Shown piece after piece: positions 2,659-55,905 of a DNA stretch of 64,000 bases. The notes beneath the pieces are model-generated. The model searched no databases. It had not been told where the DNA came from and saw only the letters and a program-made list of their open reading frames with translations. The DNA is taken from positions 17-64,016 of the forward strand of contig JAZSBI010000012.1 in NCBI GenBank assembly GCA_045602345.1, in the 5' to 3' direction. The DNA comes from Acutalibacteraceae bacterium. Lineage in GTDB: Bacteria > Bacillota > Clostridia > Oscillospirales > Acutalibacteraceae. How positions within the stretch are numbered: the stretch's first letter is position 1; every line of letters starts with the position of its first letter. The translations under genes and the position numbers were made by a program.

Positions 2659-3030
2659 ATGACAGATGAACAAATTACACAGAATGCTTCACAATATTGT
2701 GATATAATGAACGATAAAAATGAAGATATAAGACTAATTCGTTTTGCATCTTATACTGTTGGAGCAACTACGACAAAAGATATAATTGAAAAAGAAAATG
2801 CAGAACTGAAAAAGCAACAGTTTTCTTTAAGAAATGAACGAAATACTTTCCTTGCACAAAATGAACAGTATGAAAAAGATTTAATAGGCTTTAACGAAAA
2901 TCTCACCAAAGCAAAAGAACTTATTAAAAGGCTTATGCACGAATTAGTTGTAAGCAATAGACCTTATGATGAAGTCGAATTACTTGTGAAAGATGTTGAA
3001 CAATTCTTAAATAGCGAGGTGGAGAAATGA
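2659..3030 (+). CDS. coiled-coil protein, paralog family member 2
   Basis: Ends in VEQFLNSEVEK*. Contains LTKAKELIKRL. Preceded by the junction TAGGGAGATAAAAGAAAATG. Confidence 0.7.
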   Translation: MTDEQITQNASQYCDIMNDKNEDIRLIRFASYTVGATTTKDIIEKENAELKKQQFSLRNERNTFLAQNEQYEKDLIGFNENLTKAKELIKRLMHELVVSNRPYDEVELLVKDVEQFLNSEVEK

Positions 3031-3419
3031 CAACAAAAGAAGAACTTGAGAAAGAAGCAAAGACATATGCTGAAGAACACAAAATGGATATGATTGATTA
3101 TCATGACTCTTTATTTATGGAAGATGCTTATATTGCAAGTGCAGAGCCAAGAGAAAGACGAATTGAAGAGCTTGAAAAAGAAAATGCAGCATTGAAAGAA
3201 CAACTTGGCAACAAACAAATGCAGAGCCGAAAAGAAACTTCTGACTTTGTATGGAAACTGAAAACTGCTAATGAGCAGAAAACAGAACATCTCACCAAAG
3301 CAAAGAATATAATCATAAGATTGCTTGAGGCTTTAATTGTTATAGATGGCGAAGAAACTAGAGAATTGAAAGAAGTAAAAGAAGCAGAGCAGTTCTTAAA
3401 TAGCGAGGTAGAGAAATGA
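3027..3419 (+). CDS. coiled-coil protein, paralog family member 3
   Basis: Ends in AEQFLNSEVEK*. Contains LTKAKNIIIRL. ATGA coupling on both sides. Confidence 0.7.
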   Translation: MTTKEELEKEAKTYAEEHKMDMIDYHDSLFMEDAYIASAEPRERRIEELEKENAALKEQLGNKQMQSRKETSDFVWKLKTANEQKTEHLTKAKNIIIRLLEALIVIDGEETRELKEVKEAEQFLNSEVEK

Positions 3420-5512: not shown

Positions 5513-5538
5513 AGCAGGGCTTAAAACCCTGCTTTTTT
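5513..5538. terminator. hairpin terminator between convergent genes
   Basis: AGCAGGG-cttaaaa-CCCTGCT followed by TTTTTT, with an A-run on the 5' side. Confidence 0.65.
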
Positions 5539-5809
5539 ATTCTTTTACAGCCAAACGAACAATTTCTATTAATCGCCGTAAATGAGCATTTTCACTTTCA
5601 AGCGTTTCTTTTGTTTCACCTGTTATAAGCATTTCAAGAGAAACACCAAACAATTGAGCAATTCTATAGGCAGTTTCGACGTCCGGTAGAGCATCCTTAT
5701 AAATCCAGTTGGTTATTGTCGCCGCAGGAATTTCGAGACGTTCAGCAAGTTCTTTTTGCTGGACGTGATTATCTTTCATAAGTCTTTTAACATTATCCCA
5801 AAACATCAT
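5537..5809 (-). CDS. XRE/Cro-CI family HTH regulator (candidate phage repressor)
   Basis: Contains QKELAERLEIPAATITNWIYKDALPDVETAYRIAQLFGVSLEML, a classic HTH_3 pattern. It is the only minus-strand gene in the early region and is divergent from the rightward genes. Confidence 0.8.
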   Translation of the reverse strand: MMFWDNVKRLMKDNHVQQKELAERLEIPAATITNWIYKDALPDVETAYRIAQLFGVSLEMLITGETKETLESENAHLRRLIEIVRLAVKE

Positions 5810-5839: not shown

Positions 5840-5868
5840 TTGAAAAAATCTATAAATAAAGATAAAAT
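5840..5868 (+). promoter_or_regulatory. candidate early rightward promoter
   Basis: TTGAAA-17 nt-TAAAAT in the divergent intergenic region. Confidence 0.45.
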
Positions 5869-7802: not shown

Positions 7803-8099
7803 ATGGATTCTAGGGATTTTATCGCGGTAAAAGCAGAGATTCAGAAACAGAAAGCTTTGAAGTTTACGGGCATGATTAAAATTGGCGTAGACATGAACAG
7901 GTTCACACAACTTGGAATAAGCAATAATTATCAGGGTGTCTATGAAAAGTGTAACCAGCAGGATGTAGAAAAGGCCCTTGAGAACGTAAATTCTGGAAGC
8001 TTTATTATTGAATTCCAAAAGGGTGTTATCACAGCATATTCTTATGCACTGACATATAAAGCAGCCACTTTGACAAAAAGGATTCAAGAGAATGTATAA
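7803..8099 (+). CDS. hypothetical protein
   Basis: ORF track only. Confidence 0.55.
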   Translation: MDSRDFIAVKAEIQKQKALKFTGMIKIGVDMNRFTQLGISNNYQGVYEKCNQQDVEKALENVNSGSFIIEFQKGVITAYSYALTYKAATLTKRIQENV

Positions 8100-8274
8100 G
8101 TGCCGGAAATGTGGGGCAGAAATCAAATACATTACATCAGTAACCGGAACAAAACTATTCACGGTCGATGCAGAAAAGAAGCATTTTATTACGCCTTTTG
8201 GGCGCGAAGGTGACGGGTATACGCTGCATGTATGCGAGGTAAAAACAACGGATGATAAAGGAAAAACAGACTGA
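8092..8274 (+). CDS. small zinc-ribbon-like protein
   Basis: Starts MYKCRKCGAEI, with a later HVCE. Confidence 0.45.
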   Translation: MYKCRKCGAEIKYITSVTGTKLFTVDAEKKHFITPFGREGDGYTLHVCEVKTTDDKGKTD

Positions 8275-8962
8275 CACTTTACCGGATGGAACAGTAATAG
8301 ACCTTGAATCTTACGATTGGGGTGATGCAAAGCTTACCAAAAGAGAAAAGCTGTTTATTATCTGGTATACAGTACCAAATCAGCCCGGTTATCAGAACGC
8401 GACAACGGCGGCGATGAAAGCCGGGTACAAGAAAAAATCTGCATATGGCGCTAAATATGTAATACTCCAAAAACCGAAGGTTAAGGACTTAATCTCACAG
8501 ATAGAAAAAGAATCCCGGCAGATTGCTGTAATAGAAGCGGCGCGCCGGTATCAGCTCGAAGCCATAGAACGTGCTGAATATGACCTGAACGATTTTGTTG
8601 AAAGCGTAGAATATTGCGATAAAGACGGAAACAAAAGAACATCAACACGATTCAAAAAAATATCAGAGATACCGGAAGAAAAAAGGCGTATTATTGCCGG
8701 GGGCTTGAAGTTCAATAACAGCGGAGAACCAATTATAGAGCTGCCTGATAAGGACATGGCGCGGAAGACTGTAATGCAGATAGCAAAAGATATGCAGCAG
8801 ACTACAAACACAAGCGAAGAATTTGACGTAGAAACAACTATAAGCCTGATTAAAGAAAACATTGCGACTGTCACAACGAATGTAAGAACCAGAAATCAGG
8901 TAATAAGGGAGAATTCAGGGGAATATATTGAAAATATGGGAGATTTACCAGAATTTGACTAA
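8252..8962 (+). CDS. terS: terminase small subunit
   Basis: LTKREKLFIIWYTVPNQPGYQNATTAAMKAGYKKKSAYGAKYVILQKPKVKDLI matches the Terminase_2-type HTH pattern. Lies upstream of TerL. Confidence 0.75.
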   Translation: MIKEKQTDTLPDGTVIDLESYDWGDAKLTKREKLFIIWYTVPNQPGYQNATTAAMKAGYKKKSAYGAKYVILQKPKVKDLISQIEKESRQIAVIEAARRYQLEAIERAEYDLNDFVESVEYCDKDGNKRTSTRFKKISEIPEEKRRIIAGGLKFNNSGEPIIELPDKDMARKTVMQIAKDMQQTTNTSEEFDVETTISLIKENIATVTTNVRTRNQVIRENSGEYIENMGDLPEFD

Positions 8963-9079: not shown

Positions 9080-10684
9080 ATGGTAGTAGAGAAGCTAACA
9101 CCGATTGAAAGATTAAATTATTTGTACGCATTCTGCAAGTTTGATGATAAGCCACTTGTTTTAGACCCGTGGCAAGAAGACTTCATTCTTTCAACAAAAC
9201 AATTCACATCTATTCTTAAATCGCGCCGTATGGGCTGGTCATTTGTTACAGCTTTGAAGGGCTATAGTAAAGCACAAGACCCTGGAAGACAGAAATATGT
9301 AAAGCAGTTTATTTCTTATAACGAATCGGATGCTATCGAAAAGATACGCTATGCAAAAGAGTTTAATGATTCAGTTCCAAAATGGGCAAAGAAAAAGATT
9401 GTAACTGAAAACAAAACAGAATTAGAGTTTCTTGATACAAACGGGAAAACAACAAGCCGTTTAATATCAATGCCATGTAGACCGCCGCGCGGAAAAGGTG
9501 GAGACATTTCACTAGATGAATTCGGAATTTTCTTGCCTTCAATGTCAAAACAGGTGTATACAGCTGCTCTTTATGTAATTTCGCGTGGCGGCTGTATAGA
9601 GGTAGGTTCAACACCTTTAGGCTGTATCGGGCGGTTCTATGAGATATGCACGGATAAGAAACGATACCCAGCATATCAACGGTTTACTATTCCGTGGTGG
9701 TTTTCAACGGCATTGTGTACGGATGTTGCAACGGCTGTAAAAGAAGCGCCGTTTATGAATACAGCTGAAAGAGTAGAAAAATTCGCAACAGATACACTTA
9801 AAGAAATTTTCAATAACGATGTTCTGGAAGACTTTCAGCAAGAATGTGAATGCATGTTCATTGACACAGCTGAAAGCTACATAACACTTGATGAAATTTA
9901 CGGCTGTACACCGGGAATGACAGAAGATTTTTCTGTATACGATAATTCTGAATTACCAGAACCCGGCGAAACTGATTCATATTTAGGGCGTGAATTAAAG
10001 ATATTTAATACTGTTGATGATATGTGTTTAGGGTACGATCCAGACAAACACGGTATATTGTATCTTGGGTATGATGTGGCAAAATTACGCGATGCAGTTT
10101 CGATTTTCTTGCTCGGTAAAATGCCTGACGGAAAGCGCCGTGTTTATGGCTACGAGGAATTGAGGGCTAAAGACTTTGAATATCAATTGAACTGTATACG
10201 CAAGATTATGAAGTCTTTACCGGTGCACAGAGGGGCATTAGACAGTACCGGTATGGGTGCGCCTATTGCTGAAAGACTGACAAAAGAATTCCCTGAAAAA
10301 TTTGATGCAATTACATTCAGCGTGGAAACAAAGGAAAAAATGGCGCAAAGTATTAAGATAGGGTTACAGCGCAAGGAATTTTTACTTCCAAACGATAAAA
10401 ACTTACATCATCAGATACACAGTATAAGACGAACACCGACAACGGGCGGTCATTTCAAATACGATGCAAATAGAGACGAAAACGGTCATGCTGATAGTTT
10501 TTGGGGATTTGCGCTTGCAAATATAGCCTGTATTGATTCAGGTTCAAACTTCTATCTTGAAAGAGCTGCAAGGGCACAGGCAACAGCAAAAGAGGGAATA
10601 ATTACAGACCCGGATGAACTTAAAAAGGTTATTAAAGGGAAAAGTTTGAATTCGGTTAATCGCGGTTTTGGGCTTTATCGTTGA
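9080..10684 (+). CDS. terL: terminase large subunit
   Basis: 534 aa. Has an ATPase-like KSRRMGWSF and ISLDEFG, and a C-terminal nuclease-like GYDVA...ENGHADSFWGFALA. Located between TerS and the portal gene. Confidence 0.85.
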   Translation: MVVEKLTPIERLNYLYAFCKFDDKPLVLDPWQEDFILSTKQFTSILKSRRMGWSFVTALKGYSKAQDPGRQKYVKQFISYNESDAIEKIRYAKEFNDSVPKWAKKKIVTENKTELEFLDTNGKTTSRLISMPCRPPRGKGGDISLDEFGIFLPSMSKQVYTAALYVISRGGCIEVGSTPLGCIGRFYEICTDKKRYPAYQRFTIPWWFSTALCTDVATAVKEAPFMNTAERVEKFATDTLKEIFNNDVLEDFQQECECMFIDTAESYITLDEIYGCTPGMTEDFSVYDNSELPEPGETDSYLGRELKIFNTVDDMCLGYDPDKHGILYLGYDVAKLRDAVSIFLLGKMPDGKRRVYGYEELRAKDFEYQLNCIRKIMKSLPVHRGALDSTGMGAPIAERLTKEFPEKFDAITFSVETKEKMAQSIKIGLQRKEFLLPNDKNLHHQIHSIRRTPTTGGHFKYDANRDENGHADSFWGFALANIACIDSGSNFYLERAARAQATAKEGIITDPDELKKVIKGKSLNSVNRGFGLYR

Positions 10685-10741
10685 TAAAATCGTTGAATAA
10701 CGATATACTTTATTTAGTTTTATAGATTTATTTGTAGATAA

Positions 10742-10797
10742 TTTGTCTTGTAAAGGCAGTTATTGCGTTTTATGACGCGGTAACTGTCTTTTTTTTT
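10742..10797 (+). promoter_or_regulatory. conserved leader hairpin (10744-10758) overlapping an intrinsic terminator (10753-10790 plus T9), copy A
   Basis: TGTCTT-GTA-AAGGCA hairpin. A 15-bp terminator stem reuses AAGGCA. No convincing -35/-10 lies upstream. Confidence 0.7.
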
Positions 10798-10814
10798 GCT
10801 TTTGGGAGGAACAA

Positions 10815-12449
10815 ATGGCAACAGTACCGACACAAGAAGACATTATGAAGCAATTGCGCAAAGATGAAAAGAAAAACACTAAAAATAGCAATTATTTCAA
10901 AAATGGCGGCAAACTTTACGGCGCTGAAAGTTCTTTTTTTAGCCCGGATTTTATAGCGTCCAGTTATCACGATAAATATAAAACAATTCCGCGCAATCAG
11001 GCAGGTGCGGTATCTTGTGGAGTTTTACGCGCCATTGCTTCAAAAGCATGGATAATCAATATTTGTATAAACCATATCTGCAAAAAAGTTAAACCATTTT
11101 TCAAACAAAGCACTGACAAAAATATACGCGGTTTTATTGTTTACAAAAATAATTCAGCAAAAGACAAATACAACACAAATGACAAAGAAGCAAAAGCAAT
11201 TACAGATTTTATCTTGAAAACGGGCAGTTACGCTGATACAGACCGCGATTCATTTGTGAAATTTGGAGCAAGGCTAGTTAGAGACCTTCTGACATTAGAC
11301 CAGATAGCAACAGAAATTCAGTACAACAAGAAAAATGAACCAGTAGCCTTTTTTGCGGTAGATTCAGCAACAATTGAAAAGGTTTTGCATGATGATACAA
11401 CAAAAGACGAATCAGAAGAAGATAAAGACGTTAAATATATTCAGGTTATCAACGGAATTGTAACGGCTGCTTATAAAAGCGATGAAATGCTTTTTGATTA
11501 TGAAAATCCTAGAACTGACATTTATCATTCACAGTACGGCTATTCATATGTTGAGCAGGCTGTAGACCTTGTAGCAACAGTTATTAACGCATTTATGTAC
11601 AATGCCGGAAACTTTACAGAAAACAAACTTCCAAAAGGAATGCTGCTTATTAATGGCGATGCTTCTCAAGATGTAGTTGACGAAATGACTGACTATATCG
11701 CAGAGATTTTAAGCGGTTCTCCACTCAATCAGTGGAGAATTCCAGTTATACCGTCAGGCAGCAAAGATGCAACAATCGAGTGGAAACAATTAAACGGCAA
11801 TAACCGTGAAATGGAATTTCAGGGTTTTATGGACTATCTGACAAGTGCCGTTGTAGCAATGTTTGGCTGTTCTATGGATGAATTGGGCTTACAATCACAG
11901 AAGTCACAGAATCTTTTTGAATCATCAGGAAATGCAAAAATTCAAGCGAGTAAATCTCTTGTTTTAGGTGACGTTCTTTCATTCTTTGAAGACTATATAA
12001 ACAAAATCGTTGAAAAGATAAATCCAGAATACAAATTTGAATTCGTCGGATATGAAAAAGACGACCCTTCAACAGTAGCAGACTTAGACGAAAAAGAATG
12101 CAGAACATGGAAAAGCGTAAATGAAAAACGTATTGAAAAAGGCTTAAAACCAATCAATCTTAAAGATATTAAAAATGGTGCTGACATTCCTATGAATGTT
12201 CAGTTAGTTCAGCTTTTACAATCTCAAATGGCGCAGGGCGGCATGGGTGATGGCGGTATGGATATGGGCGGCAATGGCGGCGGCGATGATGAATCATGGC
12301 AGGACTATTCTGACATTCAGACCGGCGATGAAAACTTTGAGAATCCAGAAGAAAATGAACCGGATAACACAGAACCAACAGACGGCATTGAAAAGTCACT
12401 TTCTTTCATAAACAAAAACAAAGCTACAAAGAAGCTTTTTGTAATTTAA
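10815..12449 (+). CDS. portal protein
   Basis: 544 aa, immediately after TerL, with an acidic G/D/E-rich C-terminus. GGGAGG SD upstream. Confidence 0.8.
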   Translation: MATVPTQEDIMKQLRKDEKKNTKNSNYFKNGGKLYGAESSFFSPDFIASSYHDKYKTIPRNQAGAVSCGVLRAIASKAWIINICINHICKKVKPFFKQSTDKNIRGFIVYKNNSAKDKYNTNDKEAKAITDFILKTGSYADTDRDSFVKFGARLVRDLLTLDQIATEIQYNKKNEPVAFFAVDSATIEKVLHDDTTKDESEEDKDVKYIQVINGIVTAAYKSDEMLFDYENPRTDIYHSQYGYSYVEQAVDLVATVINAFMYNAGNFTENKLPKGMLLINGDASQDVVDEMTDYIAEILSGSPLNQWRIPVIPSGSKDATIEWKQLNGNNREMEFQGFMDYLTSAVVAMFGCSMDELGLQSQKSQNLFESSGNAKIQASKSLVLGDVLSFFEDYINKIVEKINPEYKFEFVGYEKDDPSTVADLDEKECRTWKSVNEKRIEKGLKPINLKDIKNGADIPMNVQLVQLLQSQMAQGGMGDGGMDMGGNGGGDDESWQDYSDIQTGDENFENPEENEPDNTEPTDGIEKSLSFINKNKATKKLFVI

Positions 12450-17400: not shown

Positions 17401-17623
17401 TGAAGTTTTGGACGTAAAGACATGCAAGTTTTGCCGACAGATAAACGGTACAATTGCTTTATGGAGCAATACGCCTTTAAGCAGCGAGAAAATAGTTGAT
17501 GATATTGCAACGGTTGCCATATGGGAAGGAAAAAGAGACGGAATTCCGGCCGGTTGTTGTCACCCTTATTGCCGCGGCGCATGGATAAGATACTATCCTG
17601 AAATTGAAAGGCAGGCTGCATAA
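14444..17623 (+). CDS. large MuF/SPP1 gp7-type minor head protein fusion (polyvalent protein)
   Basis: The C-terminus LDVKTCKFCRQINGT...CCHPYCRGAW is the Phage_Mu_F signature. A central YDYGYIRGTIGVDKDHVDVYIG resembles the inorganic pyrophosphatase motif. Lies downstream of the portal gene. Confidence 0.8.
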   Translation: MGFFEDFEKNEKPSSKNFFSRGDFDEYKISDEQLKAHGIGHFFNKDELIKRGKEIEKIYEQICKDTGLDMTTVVNKYRITKDGCYYDIENPTEKFYFDLKTKFDEAELVEKSAKYIKRWFSNGEWHYKYPPKYKANQNRTETKKDIAQSTKLITGIEPLRNPTEQEIDEALVQLSLYAINGKMKCGALGNHSVYVSDKTQEHIKETHGKPRIIPEIKHKAKYIPFVPELLKNGKIAEKSSSSKGVIYGIVGQVEYVNDKNKKVKEVVELAINYDKDTRKFVFSFSDWEIKKSLLNNRDLDNSLACPIVDTETVPITVYSLSETPILSSGTVNKSMSDKLFSLWTRRLSPEFCNELKKLMHDDEGFRLIPKKVYEIPGYPKGQDLENCDLLELSYDYFVISCGGDWQDEKLVKFTIGDDDKLSAKVIDTCEKENKTILKNKLAYIHNPDSIDKSLFIDWKAELKTICKEKNLDYEETFKKYDTSLLRKTCEVFGQDAENCIAYKACKDLNKSLTFSGYKLQGRTRLYGMDISIENKKGSYRSGTDKDGHKWKTFMHYDYGYIRGTIGVDKDHVDVYIGPDKEAQKVYVIHQNDPVTHKYDEDKCMLCFSSADEAKKAYLKQYDRPGFFGSMETFSIEQFKDVVFNKKGEKVVKPDYDGEDLLHKSFTFLLTGITENNKARKIEQLEKALTAISCRNPFILTHAEVDDSKKYNDIEIHFRDFNKSKIADAVDKVALELDEPLKAAKGEPFRYKAQEDLTNQVVRELTSKTAALYRLVIEYFGLPEANTVQKAFPLTYKGKVLYNPETGVPITRNDWQKFLNILDKFLNRNYTGQGERIILRSDALGRIMSRMLENQKRYKENLQDIRYKGKTFDWISDSVKNMKTTFGDSITRSQAAKIQIAQQSCTQRIKKVTENVRNDIQQILIDGIKDKKSRSQVAQDLFNRCHSLNRDFQKIADTEIQEASSKAYIAEELYNSEPGEKVYFKRIEVLDVKTCKFCRQINGTIALWSNTPLSSEKIVDDIATVAIWEGKRDGIPAGCCHPYCRGAWIRYYPEIERQAA

Positions 17624-17673: not shown

Positions 17674-17765
17674 GTGACAAAACAGAACTATCTTTGTTAT
17701 AATAGACTAGATTTGTTCTGCAAGAGCAGTCTTAAAACTTTGTTTTCAGGCTGCTCTTTTTTTTT
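17674..17765 (+). promoter_or_regulatory. promoter plus leader hairpin plus overlapping terminator, copy B
   Basis: GTGACA-18-TATAAT. Hairpin 17714-17728 (TGTTCT-GCA-AGAGCA). Terminator arms 17723-17732/17748-17757, then T9. Confidence 0.7.
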
Positions 17766-17791
17766 GTGCCTGAAATTAAAAGGGGTACAAA

Positions 17792-18883
17792 TTGCAGGTT
17801 GTTTATGTTATCAGAAAATCAGTTCTAAAATCATTCAGTTTTTTCAATCCTCTTGAAATTATAAAAAGTGGCCGCGCCTTGCCCGTTGGTACAATCAGAG
17901 AATGGAAAGGAAAAAAATACAAAAAAATTACTCCACAAAAATGGGTTGAAGTTAAAGAACAAAGAAAACACGGTGATTTGATACCCGAAGAAAAATTTAA
18001 TGCGAATAACTACAAAAATAAGTTTACAGATCCTAAGTGTACGAATGATGCAGCCGGAATAAAACATGTTTACTCTTTGCTCGGCGAAGAAGGACGTGCA
18101 ACACAAGCAATGGTTGAAAAGAAACTGAACGAACAAAGCCACAGACTTAAAAATGGCGATACACAAATCCGTAACATGCACAATATCAAATACGATGAAA
18201 ACGGTAAATTTGTTTCAGGTGAATGGAACGAAGAAAGAAAGAAGCTTCATCTTGAAATAATTAAAAAGATTCTCACGCCTGAAAAAGTAAATGCTTGCAA
18301 GCCGAAAAACGGAGAAAAGCCTAAGTTCATAATGTTCGGCGGCCGTGGTGGAAGCGGTAAGTCTTGGTTTACTGATAAAGAAAGAGCTGTAAAAGAAGGG
18401 CGCAAAGTTATGTTTGATAGTGACAATTACCTTATACTTGATGCTGACGAAATCAAAAAAGCTTTGCCGGAATTTCAGGGCTGGAACGCCGGAGAAGTTC
18501 ACGAAGAATCTTCTTTCTTGATGAAAGAAATTAAGAAAAATGCTATGGCGCAAGGGTTAAACATTATCATTGACGGCACAATGAATTATAACGAGAAAAA
18601 GCCGGACAAAGTAAGAAACGAAATGCTGGAAGCTAAATCAAAAGGCTATTCTCTTGAAGCGCATTATATGTTTACGCCGATTCAAAAAAGCTGCTTAAAT
18701 GCAATGAACAGATTCAAGACAAAAAAAGGCGATTTTTCAGGGCGTTTAGTTCCTACAGACATTCTTTTAGGTATGCAGGATAACGAAAAATCTTTTGATT
18801 CTGTCAAAGATATTGTTGATGATTGGACTTTCCGGGATAACCAAAACTATGATGCAAAGCTTGTCGCAAGAAAAGGTTTTTAG
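17792..18883 (+). CDS. zeta-toxin-like P-loop kinase with conserved N-terminal tag
   Basis: TTG start with AAAGGGG SD; the start is supported by alignment of its N-terminus to 21762 and 46841. Walker A FGGRGGSGKSWF, IIDGTM, FSGRLVP. Confidence 0.75.
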   Translation: MQVVYVIRKSVLKSFSFFNPLEIIKSGRALPVGTIREWKGKKYKKITPQKWVEVKEQRKHGDLIPEEKFNANNYKNKFTDPKCTNDAAGIKHVYSLLGEEGRATQAMVEKKLNEQSHRLKNGDTQIRNMHNIKYDENGKFVSGEWNEERKKLHLEIIKKILTPEKVNACKPKNGEKPKFIMFGGRGGSGKSWFTDKERAVKEGRKVMFDSDNYLILDADEIKKALPEFQGWNAGEVHEESSFLMKEIKKNAMAQGLNIIIDGTMNYNEKKPDKVRNEMLEAKSKGYSLEAHYMFTPIQKSCLNAMNRFKTKKGDFSGRLVPTDILLGMQDNEKSFDSVKDIVDDWTFRDNQNYDAKLVARKGF

Positions 18884-19207: not shown

Positions 19208-19507
19208 TTAAATTTCAAATAAAAGTTGCGAATTTCTAAAGTTTTGACCGCGCCTTTCTGCTGCCTGTTGTTTTTCAAGCCATTTTCTTGTACATTCAGG
19301 ACAGAGACCATTGAATTTTTTATTTTTCAAATCTACATCTGACAAAAGACAAAATTCTTTAAGCGTGGATAATGGCAGGTGTAATTCTTTTCCGCACTCC
19401 GCGCAAACATACGGCTCAAATGTTGGGTGTAAGAGTTTTACAATATCTTGACTGAATAAGGTCTTTTCACCGCGCGCTTTTATTTTCCATATTTCCCGAT
19501 CCTTCAT
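19208..19507 (-). CDS. hypothetical zinc-ribbon protein
   Basis: CAECG...CPEC. Sits 4 nt downstream of the HTH gene on the minus strand. Confidence 0.6.
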   Translation of the reverse strand: MKDREIWKIKARGEKTLFSQDIVKLLHPTFEPYVCAECGKELHLPLSTLKEFCLLSDVDLKNKKFNGLCPECTRKWLEKQQAAERRGQNFRNSQLLFEI

Positions 19508-19510
19508 AAG

Positions 19511-19732
19511 CTATCCTTTAATTACGGATTCTTTTGTGTTCTTATCCAAAACCTCAAACTTTAATTCACAATCCAGAGCTGCAAGAACATTTTCAAAATC
19601 TGAAACTTTCATATCATTCCTGTAGAGCTTGTTAAAAAGATTCTGCTTTGAGAATCCCATTTTAACGGATAATTCTGCAACGGTAATATTTCGCTTTACA
19701 CATATAATCTTGATAATTTCGCTTACGTTCAT
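19511..19732 (-). CDS. XRE-family HTH regulator
   Basis: Contains ITVAELSVKMGFSKQNLFNKLYRNDMKVSDFENVLAAL. Confidence 0.7.
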   Translation of the reverse strand: MNVSEIIKIICVKRNITVAELSVKMGFSKQNLFNKLYRNDMKVSDFENVLAALDCELKFEVLDKNTKESVIKG

Positions 19733-19741
19733 AAGGGATAT

Positions 19742-19837
19742 ATTAAACTAAATAATTCAATAAATCAATAAAAAAATTGAACGGTTTTACAAAATAGTTT
19801 AATTCAATGATTGACAGATTAAACTAGATAGTTTAAT
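19742..19837. promoter_or_regulatory. operator-like 9-bp sites (4 copies) around a divergent promoter region
   Basis: ATTAAACTA at 19742-50 and 19818-26. Its complement TAGTTTAAT is at 19795-803 and 19829-37. TTGACA at 19811-16. Confidence 0.5.
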
Positions 19838-19880
19838 ATTAAGGTGTAAGGCGGTTTGGAAGCCTTGCAAGGAGTTGCAA

Positions 19881-20195
19881 ATGGAAAACTACATTGTTTT
19901 GAAGAACATCGAGATTGATGGCGGTTACAAGATTGATTTTGAGGAAGTTGAAAAGAGAATCCCGGAAATGGATATTTCAGAGAGCGACAAAAAGCAGTTG
20001 GGCGAGTATGTGCAGGAATGTAAAAAGCATGATTTGACATTCGCTTTTCGGTTCAGTGCTTTTGTAAAGCAGACTTGCGGACACTGGGAACACTTGCAGC
20101 TTGCACATGAGGAATGGGTAAATGACCACATCGGAAACGGCAGGTGTACAAGATGCATTTGCGGTTACTGGGATTTGATGAAGAAAAGAGCATAA
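19881..20195 (+). CDS. hypothetical Cys/His-rich protein
   Basis: ATG 19881 with AAGGAG 6 nt upstream. In frame with track ORF 19875. Confidence 0.6.
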   Translation: MENYIVLKNIEIDGGYKIDFEEVEKRIPEMDISESDKKQLGEYVQECKKHDLTFAFRFSAFVKQTCGHWEHLQLAHEEWVNDHIGNGRCTRCICGYWDLMKKRA

Positions 20196-20271
20196 ATCAA
20201 CGCGCCGGGCGTTATCCCGGCTAAAAGGTTTATACATACCTGAAAAATCTTGAAAAGGCATGGGGTGCGGT

Positions 20272-20430
20272 ATGATGTACAATGTTTGCAAATGGTTGCA
20301 TAACGGCAAAATGACCGTGAGGGTTACGGACTGGACTATTGGAGAAGTTCTTTTTAGCGGTTCTTACAATGAGTGTTTAGACTATTGCAAGAATAATAAA
20401 CTTTATCACTGGGAGCAGGAAGATGTTTGA
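20272..20430 (+). CDS. hypothetical small protein (52 aa)
   Basis: Hand translation MMYNVCKWLHNGKMTVRVTDWTIGEVLFSGSYNECLDYCKNNKLYHWEQEDV*. Overlaps the next start. Confidence 0.35.
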   Translation: MMYNVCKWLHNGKMTVRVTDWTIGEVLFSGSYNECLDYCKNNKLYHWEQEDV

Positions 20431-20731
20431 AATGAAACTTGACGACAAAACAATTAAGGTTATGCAGCTTGAAGACTGGAAGACTAGCATTGAAAATGAC
20501 TTCAAGCCTGGAGATTACTTTGACGAAGGTATAGCATGGGATTTGATAAATTGCGTACCACCGCTGACTTTTTCATGCGGTTATTTTCAGTGTGGAGAGC
20601 CGCACTCTTTTGTAAACGGAAAGCAGACATACTTAACACTTTTGAAAGTGAATAAAAATCCGGAAGTTTGGCAGTTTTTAGGGTATTGCCACGCCGGGCA
20701 GCTTGTAACGCCTGACAAAAAAAATGATTAA
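20423..20731 (+). CDS. hypothetical protein
   Basis: ORF track only. Confidence 0.6.
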   Translation: MFEMKLDDKTIKVMQLEDWKTSIENDFKPGDYFDEGIAWDLINCVPPLTFSCGYFQCGEPHSFVNGKQTYLTLLKVNKNPEVWQFLGYCHAGQLVTPDKKND

Positions 20732-20743
20732 AGGAATTACATT

Positions 20744-21304
20744 ATGAGCATGACAATTCAGAAAGCAATTATTTTCGCTACTCTTAAACACGAGGGGCAG
20801 AAAAGAAAAGGAACTGACATTCCTTATATTGTTCACCCTATGGAAGTAATGCAGATTTTAACAGATTTGCAATGTAGTGAAAATGTAATTATAGCCGGTA
20901 TTCTGCATGATACACTTGAAGACACAAATACAACGCCGGAAGAAATAGAAAAGTTGTTCGGCCCTGATATTCTTGCAATTGTAAAAACTGAAAGTGAAGA
21001 TAAAACAAAGACTTGGAAAGAACGGAAAACCGCTACAATTGAAGACCTGCAGCACGCTGAACCAGAAACTAAAATAGTTTGCTTTGCTGATAAGTTTTCA
21101 AATATAAAAAGTATGTACCGTGATAAACTGGATATAGGCGCGGAATTATGGAAGCGTTTCAACGCTGACAAAGATTCTATCAAATGGTATTACAGCAGTA
21201 TTGCCGCGGCCTTATCAACGCCGGGCGTTAAAATGAATAATAAACGGTATGATGAGCTTTATAATGAATTTCTGGATTTGATTGATGCAGTTTTTCAGCA
21301 ATAA
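20744..21304 (+). CDS. RelA/SpoT-type HD-domain protein (small alarmone hydrolase-like)
   Basis: ATLKHEGQKRKGTDIPYIVHPMEVMQILTDL...IIAGILHDTLEDTNTTPEEIEKLFGPDILAIV matches the (p)ppGpp hydrolase HD signature. No synthetase domain is present. Confidence 0.8.
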   Translation: MSMTIQKAIIFATLKHEGQKRKGTDIPYIVHPMEVMQILTDLQCSENVIIAGILHDTLEDTNTTPEEIEKLFGPDILAIVKTESEDKTKTWKERKTATIEDLQHAEPETKIVCFADKFSNIKSMYRDKLDIGAELWKRFNADKDSIKWYYSSIAAALSTPGVKMNNKRYDELYNEFLDLIDAVFQQ

Positions 21305-21376
21305 ATAAAAGCTCTTTTCATTCTATTATTTTTCCGGTTTCTTTTTTATTTTGAATGCTTTGCCGATAATTTCAGC

Positions 21377-21610
21377 ATGAGATATGAATATTGTTTAACG
21401 CCACAAGGCAGACATGCCGAAGCTGAGTTTTTCCGCAAAAACAAAAAAGATTGGGTAAAAGTGAAATTATTTGCTTATCATTCATCTTATGAGTTTTGTT
21501 TAGAAAAAACAAGTTTTGAAGATGCGCTAAAATATCTTGATGATAACATTGAAGACATTGAACGAATAGAGGACAAGCATTTTGAGCAATGGAGTGAATT
21601 AAACGATTGA
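21377..21610 (+). CDS. hypothetical protein
   Basis: ORF track only. Confidence 0.5.
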   Translation: MRYEYCLTPQGRHAEAEFFRKNKKDWVKVKLFAYHSSYEFCLEKTSFEDALKYLDDNIEDIERIEDKHFEQWSELND

Positions 21611-21645: not shown

Positions 21646-21736
21646 TCGACAACAAAAATGAAATAAGCTATAATTACAGCATGATTTGTCTTGCAAAGAC
21701 AGTCTAACTTTGATTAGTTCAGACTGTCTTTTTTTT
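21646..21736 (+). promoter_or_regulatory. promoter plus leader hairpin plus overlapping terminator, copy C
   Basis: TCGACA-17-TATAAT. Perfect hairpin 21687-21701 (TGTCTT-GCA-AAGACA). Perfect 10-bp terminator stem 21696-21705/21721-21730, then T8. Confidence 0.75.
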
Positions 21737-21761: not shown

Positions 21762-24700
21762 ATGTCAAGAATTATATATACAGTTGATAAATCAGTTCTT
21801 AGCTCATTTACTTTTTTCAAGCCTAATCAAATCATAGAAAAAGCTGCTAAAGGCAGCCAAAAAGCAGAACATGAATATTTGTACAGATACCCAAATTCTA
21901 AAGGGGGCTGGAATTACATCTATAAAGGTGAAGTTGAAAAGGTTAAAAAATTATTCCAGAACCCTATTGAAAAACTTTCTACAATTTTTCAATTTGCAAA
22001 AGAAAAAGTTCATACCCTCTATGTGAATCATGGAATCAAAGCATCTTATAATGCTACAGAAAAAGACTTTGCAAAGCATATTCTTGAATACAAACTTAAT
22101 AAAGAACGCTGGGATAAGCGCTTTGAAAAACTTGAAGCAAACCAGAAGCATAAAAGCCCGGTAAAACTTAACGGCGGCAAAACAACACAGCGCATTCAAA
22201 AAGAAGTAAAAGAAGTAACAGGACAGGATAAAAAAGAACCAGGCGAATTTAAACCCAATGCTTCTTTAATGCGCAAAGTTTGGGCAATATTCAACAAGGA
22301 AAAGGCAGCCGAAAGCGATAGAAAAGCTGAAAGTGAAAATCAGAAAAAAGTCAAAGAAACATTCGATGCTTATGCAGATGTTTTGAAAAACGGCGGCAGA
22401 CTAAATATTTCAAACCCGAAACTAGGAAACGTTGTATTTGATGCAGGTGTTTTAGGTGACTTAACGAAGAAAAATAAAGGCGGTTTCGGCATAAGGCATC
22501 TTATTGCAAGCCGGTATTTAAAAGACGGCATGAATACAGATGATATTTGTGCATTGCTGTACTTGGTAAAAGATACTGTTGAAACGGCTTTGCCGCCGGA
22601 CACTGAAAAATCAAAAATCAATCTTAAAAAAGATGGAATCTGGGTCGGAATCTCAAAAGAATGGAACGGTGAAAAAGAAAACTGGATTATTACAGGTTTT
22701 CCTGAAAATGACAGTGAAGGAAATATTACAAAAGAAGCGGCAGATACCATAAAGACGGTAAACGCACAATATGGCTATGCACTTGAACACTCTCCTATCC
22801 GCGAACAAGTGGGGGCTGTCATTGCTTCTATCAATACTATAGCATCGGCTGATAATTCTGTCAAACCAAAAGAATCAGAAATCGAAGCGCATGAAAACCG
22901 CCCACAGGCAATGTTGGGCAATGACAATGCTAAGAAAGACTTTACGGAAGCGGATAAGGAACTTGCCCTTAGTCATATTAAAAATGATGCTGTAAAAATG
23001 CTAGAAATTCCGTATGAAAGAAAGGAATATGAAAAACTTTTTCCGCGTGGCGAGGTAAAAACACCTTTTGAAACTGTAAAGCTCGGAGAGCATCAGTTTG
23101 AAAGGCTTGCCGCAAAAGACGGTGGAACAAGAAAAAATCTTATCGGCGCGATGTATCAGACATTGAAAGAGCCTTGTGCCGTGATTGAAGATGTCGATAA
23201 ACAGGGCAGAGAAGCAAAGCTCTATATTAAATCGTTCATCGGAGAGAATAAGAACAAATTTACGCTTGCTGTTGTTGTCGATATTGACGGCAAGCCTGTT
23301 TCTGTATCTTTTGGGGAAAGAAAAGAAAAGCAGATTGAGCAAAAAATAAAAATGGCTGCCCGGTTCTACTATGTAGCGGCGGACAGCCCGACTATTGGAA
23401 CCGGTCAAGAACCGTTGCCCAACAGCTCAAATATATCATCAATCGGCGGTTCTGTCAAACTTAGCGAGGGTGACAGGGTTTCGCAGAACGGCGATACAGG
23501 CGTTATCACAAACGATTTTAAGAACGGTTTAGTTTTTGTTGAATTTGACAATGGAAGTAAAGGCCGTGTCAAAGTATCAAAATTGAAGAAAATTGACGAA
23601 CCAAAAGAACCCGAAACCGAAACTGTCAAACCAAAAGAATCAGAAATCGAAGCCCATGAAAACCGCAGCCGGGCCATGCTTGGCAATCAGAACGCTCGTA
23701 AATATGGTATTTCAGACAAATCTTGGAATTATTTACAGCGACATTTTGAAGAATTTGAAAACGCTGGTAGAAATATAATAACTGATACAGGCGCTATCGA
23801 TTCAGATTTTTATAGAGCTGTTATGAACCCTGATACATACCTGACACCAGAGCAACAGAAAGAAAAATTTGCTGCTACGGATGAATTTGACGCTGTATTT
23901 GCTCAAAATGGTTTCAAAAAAGTATCTGAAATGCTGATAGCAATGTATAATGATTATAAGGGGGCTACAAATGCAGAAAATAACACTGGAATTGAGCCGG
24001 GAAGACTATCCGATTCTAATGAGCCGGTACAGTCTGAACAACTTGAAGGAAATAGCAATAAAGATGTGCATAGCACAGAAAATCGAGCTGACAGAAACGA
24101 ACCTTTATTCAGTTCTGACGAATCTGGAAATGGACTTGGAAGACCAAACAGCACAAGCGACAGAGGACGAGGACGAATAACAAAAGCACAGGCGCGTAAA
24201 ATACGCGAACAGTGCCGCGAAATACTCAAGAAACCCGATTCAGAAATAACAGAATCAGATAAAGAGATATTATCTCAATATGTTGGAGCTGGTGGAACAG
24301 ACGAAGAAGACAGTTCTAACAGCGGTGTTCTTTATGAATTCTACACGCCGCGCAATGTCATTAAAAAAGTATGGCAGCTTGTTGATAAATACAATCCAAA
24401 CAAAAACAAAAAAGTCATTGAACCGTCTAGCGGTATAGGGCGCTTTGCAGAAGACAGAACGGAAAACTTCACATTGTTTGAACTTGAAGAAGAATCGGCT
24501 AGAATAGCTCGAATTCTTCATCCTGATGCAGAAGTAGTACAAGGCGCATTCCAAAAGAACTTTATGAAGCAGGAAAACGGGCGCTTTGCTGATAAAAACT
24601 TTGACAAATTCGACGTAGCTGTAGGCAATCCGCCTTATGGTAGATATGAAGGTATCTACAAGGGCCGCGGAGAAGGCAAAGAATTCAAACGTTACGAATC

Positions 24701-28889: not shown

Positions 28890-29288
28890 TTATAACGCCA
28901 AAAAAGGACGGTTAAAAACTTTCTGCAATTTATAAAGCGTTTCTAAAGTTGGGTTTGTTTTGCGAGGGTTCTCTAATCGCTGATATTGTTGATAAGTCAT
29001 TCCGGCTTTTTCAGCAATATCTTTTTGTGATTTTCCAGCGCGTGCTTTTCTTAGCTCAATGGCAAAAGCAACTTTCGGAGAAACTTCAACAGGATAACCA
29101 CCGGTATATTTTGAAGGGGGAATTGGGAAACCTTTTTCAATATCAACAGACAGAACGCCGTCAAGTGCATCTTTTGCCATTTCTAAGGCTTCTTCTAAAG
29201 AATAACCGTAAGTAAGAACATTTGTCATGTCAGGGAACTGTGCAATAAATTTACCGTCTTTTTCCGTTATATCGCAGTTGTAAATCAT
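28890..29288 (-). CDS. hicB: HicB-family antitoxin with C-terminal HTH
   Basis: The N-terminus MIYNCDITEKDGKFIAQFPDMTNVLTYGYSLEEALEMAKDAL and an XRE-type HTH (SQKDIAEKAGMTYQQYQRLE). Overlaps hicA by 4 nt. Confidence 0.85.
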   Translation of the reverse strand: MIYNCDITEKDGKFIAQFPDMTNVLTYGYSLEEALEMAKDALDGVLSVDIEKGFPIPPSKYTGGYPVEVSPKVAFAIELRKARAGKSQKDIAEKAGMTYQQYQRLENPRKTNPTLETLYKLQKVFNRPFLAL

Positions 29289-29506
29289 TTTTGTTTCTCC
29301 TTTAATGTCTTTGGGTCTATATTTGCTTGTTTCAAAATATCTTTTGCAAAATCGCCAAGATCATCATCTTTCCCTTTATGGAATGGAACAGGCACAGGAC
29401 GTGCAAAACCTTCTTTTACAAAGATATGGTGAGAGCTGTTTATTCTATTCAACTTCCAACCGTTCTTTTTTAGTATTTTCATTAATTGTTTTGCCGTCAT
29501 TCCCAT
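29285..29506 (-). CDS. hicA: HicA-family mRNA interferase toxin
   Basis: Contains MTAKQLMKILKKNGWKLNRINSSHHIFVKEG...VPFHKGKDDDLGDFAKDILKQANI. The start is set at the internal Met (29506), directly downstream of the promoter. Confidence 0.8.
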   Translation of the reverse strand: MGMTAKQLMKILKKNGWKLNRINSSHHIFVKEGFARPVPVPFHKGKDDDLGDFAKDILKQANIDPKTLKEKQK

Positions 29507-29512
29507 ATCAAT

Positions 29513-29541
29513 AACATACAACATATATACTGTATTGTCAA
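29513..29541 (-). promoter_or_regulatory. hicAB promoter (possibly leaderless)
   Basis: Minus strand TTGACA-17-TATGTT. The A of ATG 29506 is the 7th nt after the -10. Confidence 0.5.
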
Positions 29542-29629
29542 TGATAATAATTTTCAAAAAACTCTATCTGACACCAACGCCGATAGTTAAATAATTGTAT
29601 TTATAATTACGTAAACAAAGATAAAATAC

Positions 29630-30760: not shown

Positions 30761-30840
30761 TTGAAGCAAAAAACAAAATGATGTATACTTGTTTCTAACG
30801 ATTTGTTTCGCAGGAACAGTCTCATATTAATGGAGGTTGT
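30761..30840 (+). promoter_or_regulatory. promoter plus leader hairpin, copy E (no terminator)
   Basis: TTGAAG-17-TATACT. Hairpin 30804-30818 (TGTTTC-GCA-GGAACA). A possible alternative stem 30816-30823/30833-30840 covers the SD GGAGG. Confidence 0.65.
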
Positions 30841-36429: not shown

Positions 36430-36654
36430 ATGGGAGAATGTTTCTTAAAAGACGATTTTAACGATCCAACTTTGGTTTATCACATTATCAGACCGGCAAA
36501 GCCTGAAAAATACATCAAAGATACAGCCCTTAACAAAGACGATATGAAAGACCCAAATAATTTTGGCAGCCCTGAATTTTCTGCATGGGTTTTAGAATGT
36601 ATCGAAAATGGGAAAAAGATTAGTCAGAAAGCTAAAGAAGCCAAAGCATGTTGA
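36430..36654 (+). CDS. hypothetical protein
   Basis: ORF track. AGAGAGGTG SD upstream. Confidence 0.6.
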   Translation: MGECFLKDDFNDPTLVYHIIRPAKPEKYIKDTALNKDDMKDPNNFGSPEFSAWVLECIENGKKISQKAKEAKAC

Positions 36655-36666
36655 TAAACTCTTTAG

Positions 36667-36754
36667 TTGACAACACTGAAATATAAATATATTATGACAC
36701 TATAGATTTGTCTTGCAAAGGCAGTCGTACTTTATGTATGGCTGCCTTTTTTTT
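36667..36754 (+). promoter_or_regulatory. promoter plus leader hairpin plus overlapping terminator, copy D
   Basis: TTGACA-17-TATTAT. Hairpin 36709-36723 (TGTCTT-GCA-AAGGCA). Terminator arms 36718-36726/36740-36748, then T8. Confidence 0.75.
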
Positions 36755-36775
36755 ATGGTCAGCCAAGAGGATTTT

Positions 36776-49675: not shown

Positions 49676-49731
49676 TTGACAACAATTGAAATAAAACGTA
49701 AAATATAACGGATGTTTGTATCGTAGGTACA
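49676..49731 (+). promoter_or_regulatory. promoter plus leader hairpin, copy F
   Basis: TTGACA-17-TAAAAT. Hairpin 49717-49731 (TGTATC-GTA-GGTACA). Confidence 0.65.
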
Positions 49732-49757: not shown

Positions 49758-50525
49758 ATGATATGTTATATCAACAGAGGACTAATACTCGAACAACTTC
49801 TTGTAAGTGCATTTACTGATTATTTTAAGACAATCAATCTTGAAGGCATTTACAAAAACTTTCATGTCAACGTAACTAATTCACATCCATTTGCAGATTT
49901 ACTTGCCTACGAATCAGAAAAAACAAACGATAACTTTCCAGCCGTTATAATCACCACAGAATCAGAAGACAAAACAAGCGAATTAATGGACTTAGCGCCG
50001 GAAGTAGATGCTGTTGGTTTTGACCTTGCCAGAATTGAAGAACTGACACAAAACACAGAAATAATCATCAAAAAGGGTAAGGAAAAACAGGAAAAAATTC
50101 CAGGTTATTGCAATATTATTGATTCTGATGCAATAGAAACAATCAAAAGTGTCATTGAAAAACAAAACTATATTTACGGTATTGATATAAGAAACCGTAG
50201 AACTGACCATGTTTCAATTGAAATTTGGGCTGAAAACAATCAGCTAAAGAATGAGCTTTATGAGCAGATAAGGCTTTTTGTTACCGGAAATCTTCGATTC
50301 ATTTTAAGAAATAACAAATATCTTCCATATGATATAGCACTTTTTGACTCAACAATCAGCGGACAGCGTTCAAATAATTATAATTTTGATTTTTCTACAA
50401 CTTTGTGCGGTGCACGAATTTCTTTTGACGTAAATTATCGCGTTGAACAAATCGTTTTAGACACTGAAATAACAGGACTCAATAAAGACATTATTGTGGA
50501 GGTAAACAATCATGTCAAAATCTAA
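49758..50525 (+). CDS. hypothetical virion protein (start moved downstream of the leader hairpin)
   Basis: The track start TTG 49716 lies inside the hairpin. ATG 49758 is in frame. The SD is weak (AAGG). Confidence 0.55.
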   Translation: MICYINRGLILEQLLVSAFTDYFKTINLEGIYKNFHVNVTNSHPFADLLAYESEKTNDNFPAVIITTESEDKTSELMDLAPEVDAVGFDLARIEELTQNTEIIIKKGKEKQEKIPGYCNIIDSDAIETIKSVIEKQNYIYGIDIRNRRTDHVSIEIWAENNQLKNELYEQIRLFVTGNLRFILRNNKYLPYDIALFDSTISGQRSNNYNFDFSTTLCGARISFDVNYRVEQIVLDTEITGLNKDIIVEVNNHVKI

Positions 50526-52983: not shown

Positions 52984-52996
52984 GCTTTAATTACTG

Positions 52997-53024
52997 ACGC
53001 TGCTGTAACAGGCAGCGTTTTTTA
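52997..53024 (+). terminator. intrinsic terminator after the tube gene
   Basis: ACGCTGCT-gtaaca-GGCAGCGT followed by TTTTTT. Confidence 0.65.
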
Positions 53025-55850: not shown

Positions 55851-55905
55851 TTGACAGTAAAAAGATATAATTATAAAATGTAGTAACGTTTGTATCGCAG
55901 ATACA
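55851..55905 (+). promoter_or_regulatory. promoter plus leader hairpin, copy G
   Basis: TTGACA-17-TAAAAT. Perfect hairpin 55891-55905 (TGTATC-GCA-GATACA). Confidence 0.7.

Follow-up and report, generated by a model that had tools for sequence, protein, structure and literature searches.

The stretch of DNA analysed here (the window), 64 kb of the 81.5-kb contig JAZSBI010000012.1, belongs to a myovirus with terS/terL, portal, MuF/InPase and sheath genes and genes for a CI-like repressor, SSB and RusA. An earlier note, made from the sequence alone, had described four leaders in this DNA, called A, B, C and D below, in which the 3' arm of a small hairpin also begins the stem of an intrinsic terminator. 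All four copies were found where the note had placed them. We show that these leaders fold as the terminator, that the small hairpin is far too weak to win by itself, and that both structures are conserved in related phages, the hairpin with covariation. We propose that a trans-acting factor may close the hairpin and let RNA polymerase (RNAP) pass into the late genes.

Leaders in which a hairpin and a terminator share one arm

Each of the four leaders consists of a promoter-like site, a hairpin and a terminator, followed by the first gene of an operon:

10681–10709, plus strand: leader A promoter-like site, TTGATA-17-TATACT, 10/12 matches, 34 nt 5' of the hairpin, upstream of the portal operon
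10744–10758, plus strand: leader A hairpin, TGTCTT-GTA-AAGGCA, −2.7 kcal/mol, covariance model 30.5 bits, E = 3.6e-5
10752–10797, plus strand: leader A predicted terminator, stem 10752–10791 (−23.9 kcal/mol), T9 10789–10797; portal ATG at 10815
17674–17703, plus strand: leader B promoter-like site, GTGACA-18-TATAAT with upstream TG, 11/12 matches
17714–17728, plus strand: leader B hairpin, TGTTCT-GCA-AGAGCA, −3.3 kcal/mol, covariance model 30.9 bits
17722–17765, plus strand: leader B predicted terminator, stem 17722–17758 (−18.3 kcal/mol), T9 17757–17765; zeta-toxin-domain gene start at 17792
21646–21674, plus strand: leader C promoter-like site, TCGACA-17-TATAAT, 11/12 matches
21687–21701, plus strand: leader C hairpin, TGTCTT-GCA-AAGACA, −3.3 kcal/mol, a covariance-model match
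21695–21736, plus strand: leader C predicted terminator, stem 21695–21731 (−17.1 kcal/mol), T8 21729–21736; SNF2/Eco57I/PBECR gene ATG at 21762
36667–36695, plus strand: leader D promoter-like site, TTGACA-17-TATTAT, 11/12 matches
36709–36723, plus strand: leader D hairpin, TGTCTT-GCA-AAGGCA, −2.7 kcal/mol, covariance model 33.5 bits
36717–36754, plus strand: leader D predicted terminator, stem 36717–36749 (−21.0 kcal/mol), T8 36747–36754; protease ATG at 36776, then the major capsid gene

The hairpin has a 15-nt consensus, UGUnnn-GYA-nnnRCA, preceded by TT and followed by G, with a 6-bp stem and a GCA or GTA loop. The terminators of A–D have stems of 14–18 bp and runs of T8–T9; judged by sequence, this is the layout of an intrinsic (Rho-independent) terminator, taken here as a GC-containing stem-loop with a U-tract of 5–9 nt directly after it. 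The two structures have 7 nt in common (AAAGGCA, AAGAGCA, AAAGACA and AAAGGCA in A, B, C and D, respectively), namely the 6-nt 3' arm of the hairpin and the last base of its loop, and these 7 nt are the bottom of the terminator 5' arm. The stem pairings that the earlier note had quoted for B and C were correct, and its view that the two structures exclude each other agrees with this shared segment and with the shortening of the terminator stem when the hairpin was enforced. From the end of the T-run to the start codon there are 17, 26, 25 and 21 nt in A, B, C and D, a stretch that holds the Shine-Dalgarno (SD) sequence, and the terminator stands between promoter and SD in all four leaders, as the note had also said.

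The note had further called for a comparison of the folding energies of the two structures. As leader RNAs, A–D folded as the terminator only, with −17.7 to −24.4 kcal/mol (z = −4.7 to −6.7) and with none of 200 shuffles as stable. Taken alone, the small hairpins reached −2.7 to −3.3 kcal/mol, and they were present in no minimum free energy (MFE) or centroid fold. Enforcing the hairpin made the leader 7.6–10.4 kcal/mol less stable and left a residual terminator stem that stopped 5–6 nt short of the U-run. A gap of this size should block hairpin-driven release of the transcript. There is no room for a promoter between the T-run and the gene, because the interval measures only 17–26 nt and holds the SD; therefore, the mRNA for portal, protease and capsid must come from polymerases that pass the terminator, a need at A–D that depends solely on the predicted terminators being functional. 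A hairpin too weak to win alone, and absent from the MFE and centroid folds, is most simply accounted for by a trans-acting factor that clamps it.

Three further copies, E, F and G, lie in leaders that have no terminator before the SD:

30761–30818, plus strand: leader E, promoter-like TTGAAG-17-TATACT, hairpin 30804–30818 TGTTTC-GCA-GGAACA (28.6 bits), no terminator; gene start at 30847
49676–49731, plus strand: leader F, promoter-like TTGACA-17-TAAAAT, hairpin 49717–49731 TGTATC-GTA-GGTACA, no terminator; tail-sheath operon, ATG at 49758
55851–55905, plus strand: leader G, promoter-like TTGACA-17-TAAAAT, hairpin 55891–55905 TGTATC-GCA-GATACA, no terminator; GTG at 55928

A covariance model built from 27 hairpins found exactly these seven copies in the window, all on the plus strand (E = 6e-6 to 7e-3; next-best match E = 0.21), and a degenerate-pattern scan that preceded it had given the same seven. 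With a 19-mer allowing up to 3 mismatches, 3 matches were obtained in the window against 0.04 expected, and a chance origin of the repeated motif is excluded. All seven hairpins lie 3' of a sigma70-like −35/−10 pair with a spacer of 17–18 nt and 9–11 of 12 matches; from the −10 hexamer to the start of the hairpin there are 7–11 nt in B–G and 34 nt in A. The operons begin with the portal gene (A), the gene of a zeta-toxin-domain protein (B), that of a 2361-aa SNF2/Eco57I/PBECR polyvalent protein (C), and the prohead protease and major capsid protein genes (D). Leader E precedes genes for a 682-aa protein and then LPD3/ParB-like and zeta proteins, F the tail-sheath operon and G a tail/lysin operon. 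By these gene assignments, the motif marks what are predicted to be late, virion-protein operons. Neither hairpin nor terminator accompanies three other strong plus-strand sites, the early or moron promoter-like sites at 5840 (ahead of the early-right operon), 19811 (within a regulatory island) and 29630. Inside the tail operon, at 52996–53019 on the plus strand, a terminator-like hairpin, GACGCTGCTGTAACAGGCAGCGTT, with a T-run lies between the sheath/tube and chaperone/tape-measure genes, without a hairpin motif or promoter of its own.

The hairpins of E, F and G must have a role beyond blocking an overlapping terminator, since these leaders have none. In leader F the 5' arm of the hairpin is complementary over 10 bp to the start-codon region, including ATG 49758 (p ~0.004 against shuffles), and in leader G GUUUGUAUC pairs with GGUACAAAC in a 9-bp helix that takes in the spacer before GTG 55928 and part of the SD (p ~0.025 against shuffles). 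Other hairpins fit these ribosome-binding regions worse. This weakly suggests that stabilising the hairpin could also free the ribosome-binding sites of F and G. Sequestration of the SD in leader E was considered and rejected, as its alternative pairing was not significant against shuffles. In leaders A and B, the sequence AUUUGU, which starts just 5' of the hairpin and runs into it, is complementary to ACAAAU before the start codon (10741–10746 with 10809–10814, and 17711–17716 with 17786–17791), and a like pairing is seen in G. It was significant for A (0/1000 shuffles) and not for B (p = 0.32), and the complementary stretches in A and B may be mere A-rich spacers.

Conservation and covariation in related phages

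Related loci were gathered around homologues of the protease (34–69% identical) and of terL and scanned for strong terminators. About 40 contigs of related phages yielded some 57–67 distinct plus-strand leaders with the same order of elements. A promoter-like site comes first, then the 5' block R-W-T-N-TG-Y, a loop of 3–6 nt and the 3' block RGRCAG(T/C), which doubles as the base of a terminator of −17 to −37 kcal/mol, followed by the T-run, SD and start codon. The stem sub-types include TGTCTT/AAGGCA, TGCTTT/AAGGCA, TGTTCT-GAAA-AGGGCA and TGTTCA-GAAA-TGGGCA; forms with a single bulge, TGC[A]CTT/AAGGCA and TGC[G]CC/GGGCA, are confined to some distant relatives. Positions T-N-TG at the 5' base and CA-G at the 3' base (T13, G14, C, A, G) are invariant. 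The observation is real, non-random and evolutionarily conserved.

To judge the pairing, partners were shuffled within alignments. In the seed alignment, 94.4% of the paired cells could pair, against 84.4 ± 1.5% with shuffled partners (0/500); two-sided changes occurred in three of the six pairs (17 cells, 4.2 expected), the covariation score was 0.483 against 0.254 (0/500), and slid registers were only 40–57% paired. The seed hairpins had been chosen with a hairpin filter, and two less biased tests were added. An alignment derived from the model (34 matches in relatives) gave 90.9% against 84.3% paired and a covariation score of 0.355 against 0.222 (0/500). A test anchored on the terminator, using solely terminators that begin with RCAG, gave a mean uninterrupted helix of 4.10 bp, compared with 2.74 ± 0.15 bp for shuffled upstream sequence and 3.67 ± 0.07 bp for swapped partners (0/300 each). 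Without this anchor the signal was weaker but positive: 4.78 against 4.36 ± 0.10 in the clade of the window; other terminators gave 4.35 against 4.20. In the more distant terL clade, hairpins seen by eye (GGTTTT/AAAGCC, GGT[T]GTT/AACGCC) were rejected, since the anchor-free test gave z = 0.7, and we limit the hairpin claim to the clade of the window for this reason.

The element was always in sense orientation, in all 34 matches in relatives and in 41 of 41 significant matches overall, and pair 3 was U.G in 17–19 of 27–30 sequences, which is an A.C mismatch on the other strand. These wobbles and the single orientation indicate that the element acts as RNA and not as a duplex operator. Among the relatives, every match with E ≤ 0.035 (25 of 25) started 19–22 nt before a called terminator stem, and the site orthologous to leader F, which has no terminator in the window, has one in relatives (L037 at 19033, L046 at 19774, L057 at 20199). 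A promoter-like site of at least 9/12 within 75 nt upstream was present in 72% of leaders, compared with 8% of random windows, and between the −10 element and the 5' block of the hairpin there were 5–46 nt. The hairpin thus goes with the terminator and not with the promoter. This variable spacing argues against a Q-type, promoter-anchored DNA element and against a purely 5'-terminal stabiliser.

A hairpin resembling the leader motif, TGTTTC-N4-GGAACAG, was seen inside the major capsid gene of three relatives, at one and the same place (L014 at 11935, L018 at 11931 and L021 at 11929); in L021 it carries a two-sided change, TGTATC/GGTACA, and no equivalent was seen in the capsid gene of the window. 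An exact-motif scan of IMG/VR returned 12 matches, all chance or coding, and a locus search with the portal protein alone gave one weak match.

No DNA similarity to cultured phages was found, and the capsid protein is 28–30% identical to SPO1-like capsids. The terL relatives in GTDB genomes (L066–L097) came mostly from Treponema, Treponemataceae or Spirochaetes metagenome-assembled genomes of animal and human guts. Several of them sit inside contigs of 113–232 kb, which suggests prophages. The group is probably a family of temperate spirochaete phages, and the phage studied here probably infects Treponema, as far as its relatives tell.

Known switches and candidate factors

The ribonucleic antiterminator (RAT) of B. 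subtilis licS, bound by LicT, is a hairpin of ~29–33 nt with two conserved internal loops, by which it is recognised; it overlaps its terminator by 8 nt, at a cost of 6.6 kcal/mol to be made up by the protein (PMC5393181). The phage leaders resemble this RAT/CAT system (BglG/SacY/LicT) in that the 3' end of a weak hairpin is the 5' base of a terminator and termination is the default, with an overlap of 7 nt and a cost of 7.6–10.4 kcal/mol. They differ from it in the hairpin, which has 15 nt with a perfect 6-bp stem, a 3-nt loop and no internal loops, and in being a phage late switch at seven operons instead of a sugar operon controlled by the phosphotransferase system. About 50 open reading frames (ORFs) of the window were scanned with Pfam, PHROGs and NCBIfam, 17.5 kb of the genome lying outside the window; among them there was no match to CAT_RBD or PRD, and no ANTAR, N, Q or NusG N-terminal domain.

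With the lambda pR'–tR'/Q system, and with AlpA-type loaders, the leaders share a constitutive host-type promoter with a close terminator before late genes, a predicted short terminated RNA, and a candidate factor encoded last in the early-right operon, after RusA and before the late region. Q itself acts processively, from a single site per genome, by way of a promoter DNA element and a sigma-dependent pause, whereas the phage element is an RNA hairpin that overlaps the terminator, at each operon and at variable promoter spacing. No Q-family (Pfam) match was found in the scanned ORFs, including the Q-equivalent position. Small conserved stem-loops in leaders linked to read-through are also known from lambda N/nut boxB and HK022 put. 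The specificity of boxB lies in a GNRA-like pentaloop, whereas the phage loop varies (GCA, GTA, GAAA, AGA, AAA and others) and the stem base and flanks are conserved; moreover, neither nut nor put overlaps with the terminators it acts on, and put consists of two stem-loops of ~35 nt and needs no protein. A possible boxA, TGTTCT..GAAAA, which recalls that of rrn, was rejected, as it occurs in some copies only and its positions covary as a stem.

Two further systems were compared. Com of phage Mu, a small zinc-binding protein, binds an RNA stem-loop and opens an inhibitory helix over the translation start of mom. Leaders F and G, and the zinc-ribbon candidate Z described below, have a parallel here; Com, however, acts on one mRNA and not on terminators, and Z did not match the Com family of Pfam. 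LoaP, a NusG paralogue of Bacillus antibiotic operons, reportedly requires a small leader hairpin upstream of intrinsic terminators. It is NusG-like and processive, whereas the window has no NusG N-terminal domain, only an early ORF of 60 aa (1893–2075) with a weak, sub-threshold match to KOW, the Spt5/NusG C-terminal domain (E = 0.011). A relevance of this ORF to the control of transcription elongation could be imagined and is unsupported. Rfam 15 gave nothing at gathering thresholds. Its sole match at E ≤ 1 was L20_leader at 36629–36759, over leader D (27.7 bits against a gathering threshold of 58.7, E = 0.27), most likely a chance likeness of terminator-containing leaders. In a literature search no prior description of such leaders or of this phage group was found.

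The earlier note had assigned the leaders the design logic of RAT/terminator or N/Q-type control. Its attenuator/antiterminator reading is supported, and strengthened by the comparative data: the layout is conserved in about 40 contigs, the small stem covaries, and the hairpin abuts a terminator in 25 of 25 significant matches in relatives. The leaders do not belong to the BglG/SacY/LicT family. As for the two kinds of control named in the note, which differ in mechanism, the RAT type is favoured over the N/Q type, short of proof.

If a factor is encoded by the phage, two adjoining genes are reasonable candidates by synteny within this one phage lineage:

7803–8099, plus strand: X, 98 aa, second-to-last gene of the early-right operon, before terS; a candidate by gene position only
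8092–8274, plus strand: Z, 60 aa, C2HC zinc ribbon, always adjoining X and just before terS (8252–8962); a candidate by gene position only

X and Z are the last early genes before the late region, after RusA, which is the position of Q in lambda. The pair was present in 30 of 33 related terL loci having enough upstream DNA, for example at 8760–9247 in L058, 8190–8975 in L061 and 9998–10473 in L064, with X of ~100 aa and Z of ~57 aa, and also on the leader-bearing contigs of L020, L021 and L025. The two genes overlap in several relatives, with Z and the 3' end of X in different reading frames. The L061 lineage has a split X, whose C-terminal half is fused to a CI-like helix-turn-helix (HTH) domain. 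The X family is narrow, with 65 representative clusters among 1.84 billion representative proteins. X contains an internal repeat, which looks like a tandem DUF2292-like arrangement, and 2 of 54 members weakly match DUF2292 (best E = 2e-4), a domain of no known function on which the literature search gave nothing useful. The protein was modelled as alpha-beta-beta-alpha-beta-beta-alpha (pLDDT 89, pTM 0.76). With both a poor and a good model, Foldseek searches of PDB and BFVD returned no match at E ≤ 1e-3 and no CAT structure, and a sequence-profile search of the PDB returned nothing. A locus search with an X alignment headed by a typical member found two loci, and with another alignment there was no confirmed locus. 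In Z, residues C4, C7, H46 and C48 and the pair G37-R38 are invariant. The copy in the window has a sub-threshold match to Fin, an RNAP-binding protein (E = 0.029), which was absent in four Z homologues, and we keep a Fin-like nature of Z as a hint only. Neither Z nor the four homologues matched Com or anything above any Pfam cut-off.

Other features of the window were recorded in passing. Three early ORFs (1232–1822, 2659–3030 and 3027–3419) share the C-terminal peptide AEQFLNSEVEK, and two (92–256 and 2062–2652) begin with MNLIREIK; they have the look of early paralogues, or of gene ends that were repeated. The regulatory/moron island at 19208–21610, inside the late region, carries two genes on the minus strand, whose products are a zinc-ribbon-like protein (99 aa) and an HTH protein of the Cro/C1 type (73 aa); a strong, divergent promoter at 19811–19839; small plus-strand genes; and an HD hydrolase. 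One of its products, a 102-aa protein (20423–20731), is 88–89% identical in L044 and L048, whose protease is only ~36% identical, which suggests a recent exchange of this gene. Between late operons, at 28890–29557 on the minus strand, lies a HicA/HicB-like toxin-antitoxin pair with an HTH in HicB.

A proposed late-gene switch and its alternatives

We favour a factor-dependent antiterminator hairpin, RAT-like in logic, whose factor is most likely encoded by the phage, and we put this at about an even chance of being right. Each late operon would be transcribed from a host-type, sigma70-like promoter into a short leader. Four of the seven leaders here, and essentially all of those in relatives, would end in a strong terminator 17–26 nt ahead of the first start codon. 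By default the terminator would form and the late genes would stay silent, which may be useful in the lysogen and early in infection, and the same terminator may also end the upstream operon. A trans factor, made from the early-right operon, with X and Z before terS as candidates, would hold the weak hairpin (~−3 kcal/mol) closed, so that the terminator stem stops 5–6 nt short of the U-tract; with the stem kept from the U-tract, RNAP would read into the portal, capsid and other genes. It would recognise the invariant T-N-TG and CA-G positions at the stem base rather than the loop. In F and G the same hairpin would compete with the helix over the ribosome-binding region, and one factor could switch on read-through and translation alike.

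Several points weigh against this proposal. Promoters, start sites and termination are predictions from sequence. The loop varies among relatives in sequence and size (3–6 nt, with some bulges), which is unusual for a specific protein site, and upstream complementarity in the more distant terL clade was not significant. Leaders E, F and G retain the hairpin without a terminator, and E shows no significant alternative pairing either. The scanned ORFs yielded no RNA-binding or antiterminator domain. X, finally, was modelled with confidence yet has no structural neighbour in PDB or BFVD, and its role rests on the synteny of a single lineage, not on independent evidence.

One alternative is processive antitermination of the nut/boxB–N, put, Q or LoaP-like kind, in which the hairpin RNA, with or without nearby DNA, is a loading site for a factor that joins RNAP and resists leader and downstream terminators, the overlap being secondary. 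Such a factor could use the conserved hairpins of E, F and G, where no terminator overlaps, and could carry RNAP past the terminator at 52996–53019, inside the tail operon, with no promoter or hairpin before the next genes. X and Z hold the position of lambda Q, one X lineage has a DNA-binding HTH, as expected of a Q- or AlpA-type loader, and Z is a small zinc protein with the weak Fin match in its window copy. A loading site needs no shared 3' arm, yet all 25 relative hairpins share theirs with the terminator, and there is a copy at every late operon, whereas lambda needs one site. The promoter spacing of 5–46 nt speaks against an element of the Q type, anchored at the promoter, the scanned ORFs gave no match to an N, Q, NusG or LoaP domain, and the Fin match is missing in four Z homologues. 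We consider this explanation unlikely.

It is also conceivable, and quite unlikely in our judgement, that no factor takes part: the hairpin would kinetically set a fixed leakiness of each terminator, and with it the ratios of the late operons, while timing would be set elsewhere, by the repressor or genome copy number. Partial terminators are common in phage late operons, and the leader terminators directly follow upstream operons (terL end at 10684, MuF-domain gene end at 17623, zeta gene end at 36327) and so serve as operon ends; the candidate factors, moreover, were chosen by position only. The energetics speak against it, as the hairpin is 7.6–10.4 kcal/mol weaker than its rival stem and in no MFE or centroid fold, and displacement of a 6-bp strand is fast, so little effect would be expected without a clamp. 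Conservation of the stem base and flanks (U-N-UG...CA-G) exceeds what pairing needs, and strong consensus promoters call for tight shut-off where, as in this apparently temperate phage, the late genes behind them are lethal.

A role of the hairpin close to the 5' end of late mRNAs, as a stabiliser or translation element unrelated to termination, is very unlikely; the overlap would then be a by-product of hairpin and terminator both being made of U-rich/A-rich and GGCAG-like sequence. The hairpins of B–G, 7–11 nt after the −10 hexamer, do lie close to the predicted 5' end or at it, a terminator is missing from E, F and G, and F and G pair with the ribosome-binding site. In leader A and most relatives, by contrast, the hairpin starts 20–46 nt after the −10 hexamer and is not 5'-terminal, the partner-swap test showed the 5' block covarying with its own terminator base, and leaders that are terminated or fully folded do not form the hairpin. 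A DNA operator, in which a dimeric phage repressor or activator binds TGTnnn-N3-nnnACA as an inverted repeat, would suit a palindrome adjoining promoters in a genome with HTH proteins at 5537–5809, 19511–19732 and 28890–29288, but is scarcely credible, given that variable stem positions change on both sides with complementarity kept, that U.G at pair 3 loses the symmetry in duplex DNA, and that the element occurs in sense orientation only, at no fixed position relative to the −10 hexamer.

The factor-dependent antiterminator can also be put in a bolder form, which we hold as tentative and on balance doubtful: a two-protein regulator, X plus Z, would clamp the 15-nt hairpin, relieving terminators at most late operons and ribosome-binding-site helices at others, and this RAT-like system would have arisen independently of CAT, ANTAR, N and Q and be widespread in gut Treponema phages.

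To our knowledge, detailed accounts of late-gene switching are limited to a few model phages (lambda Q, T4, P2/P4 and Mu), and there is none of any kind for spirochaete phages or most uncultured gut phages. The leaders described here look like an undescribed antitermination switch, RAT-like and yet outside BglG, N, Q and LoaP, and there is a realistic chance that a new class of antiterminator protein stands behind it. The cis element is compact, at 15 nt plus a terminator, is repeated at every late operon and has been kept, with covariation, in dozens of genomes, and its regulatory logic is open to direct tests; abundant leader RNAs of 45–85 nt would be predicted in lysogens. X and Z are two small conserved proteins that may represent a new RNA-binding or RNAP-binding class of antiterminators, and the switch could offer synthetic biology a very small protein-responsive terminator. 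For this phage group, the motif would serve as a marker of the late operons and of the boundary between early and late genes.

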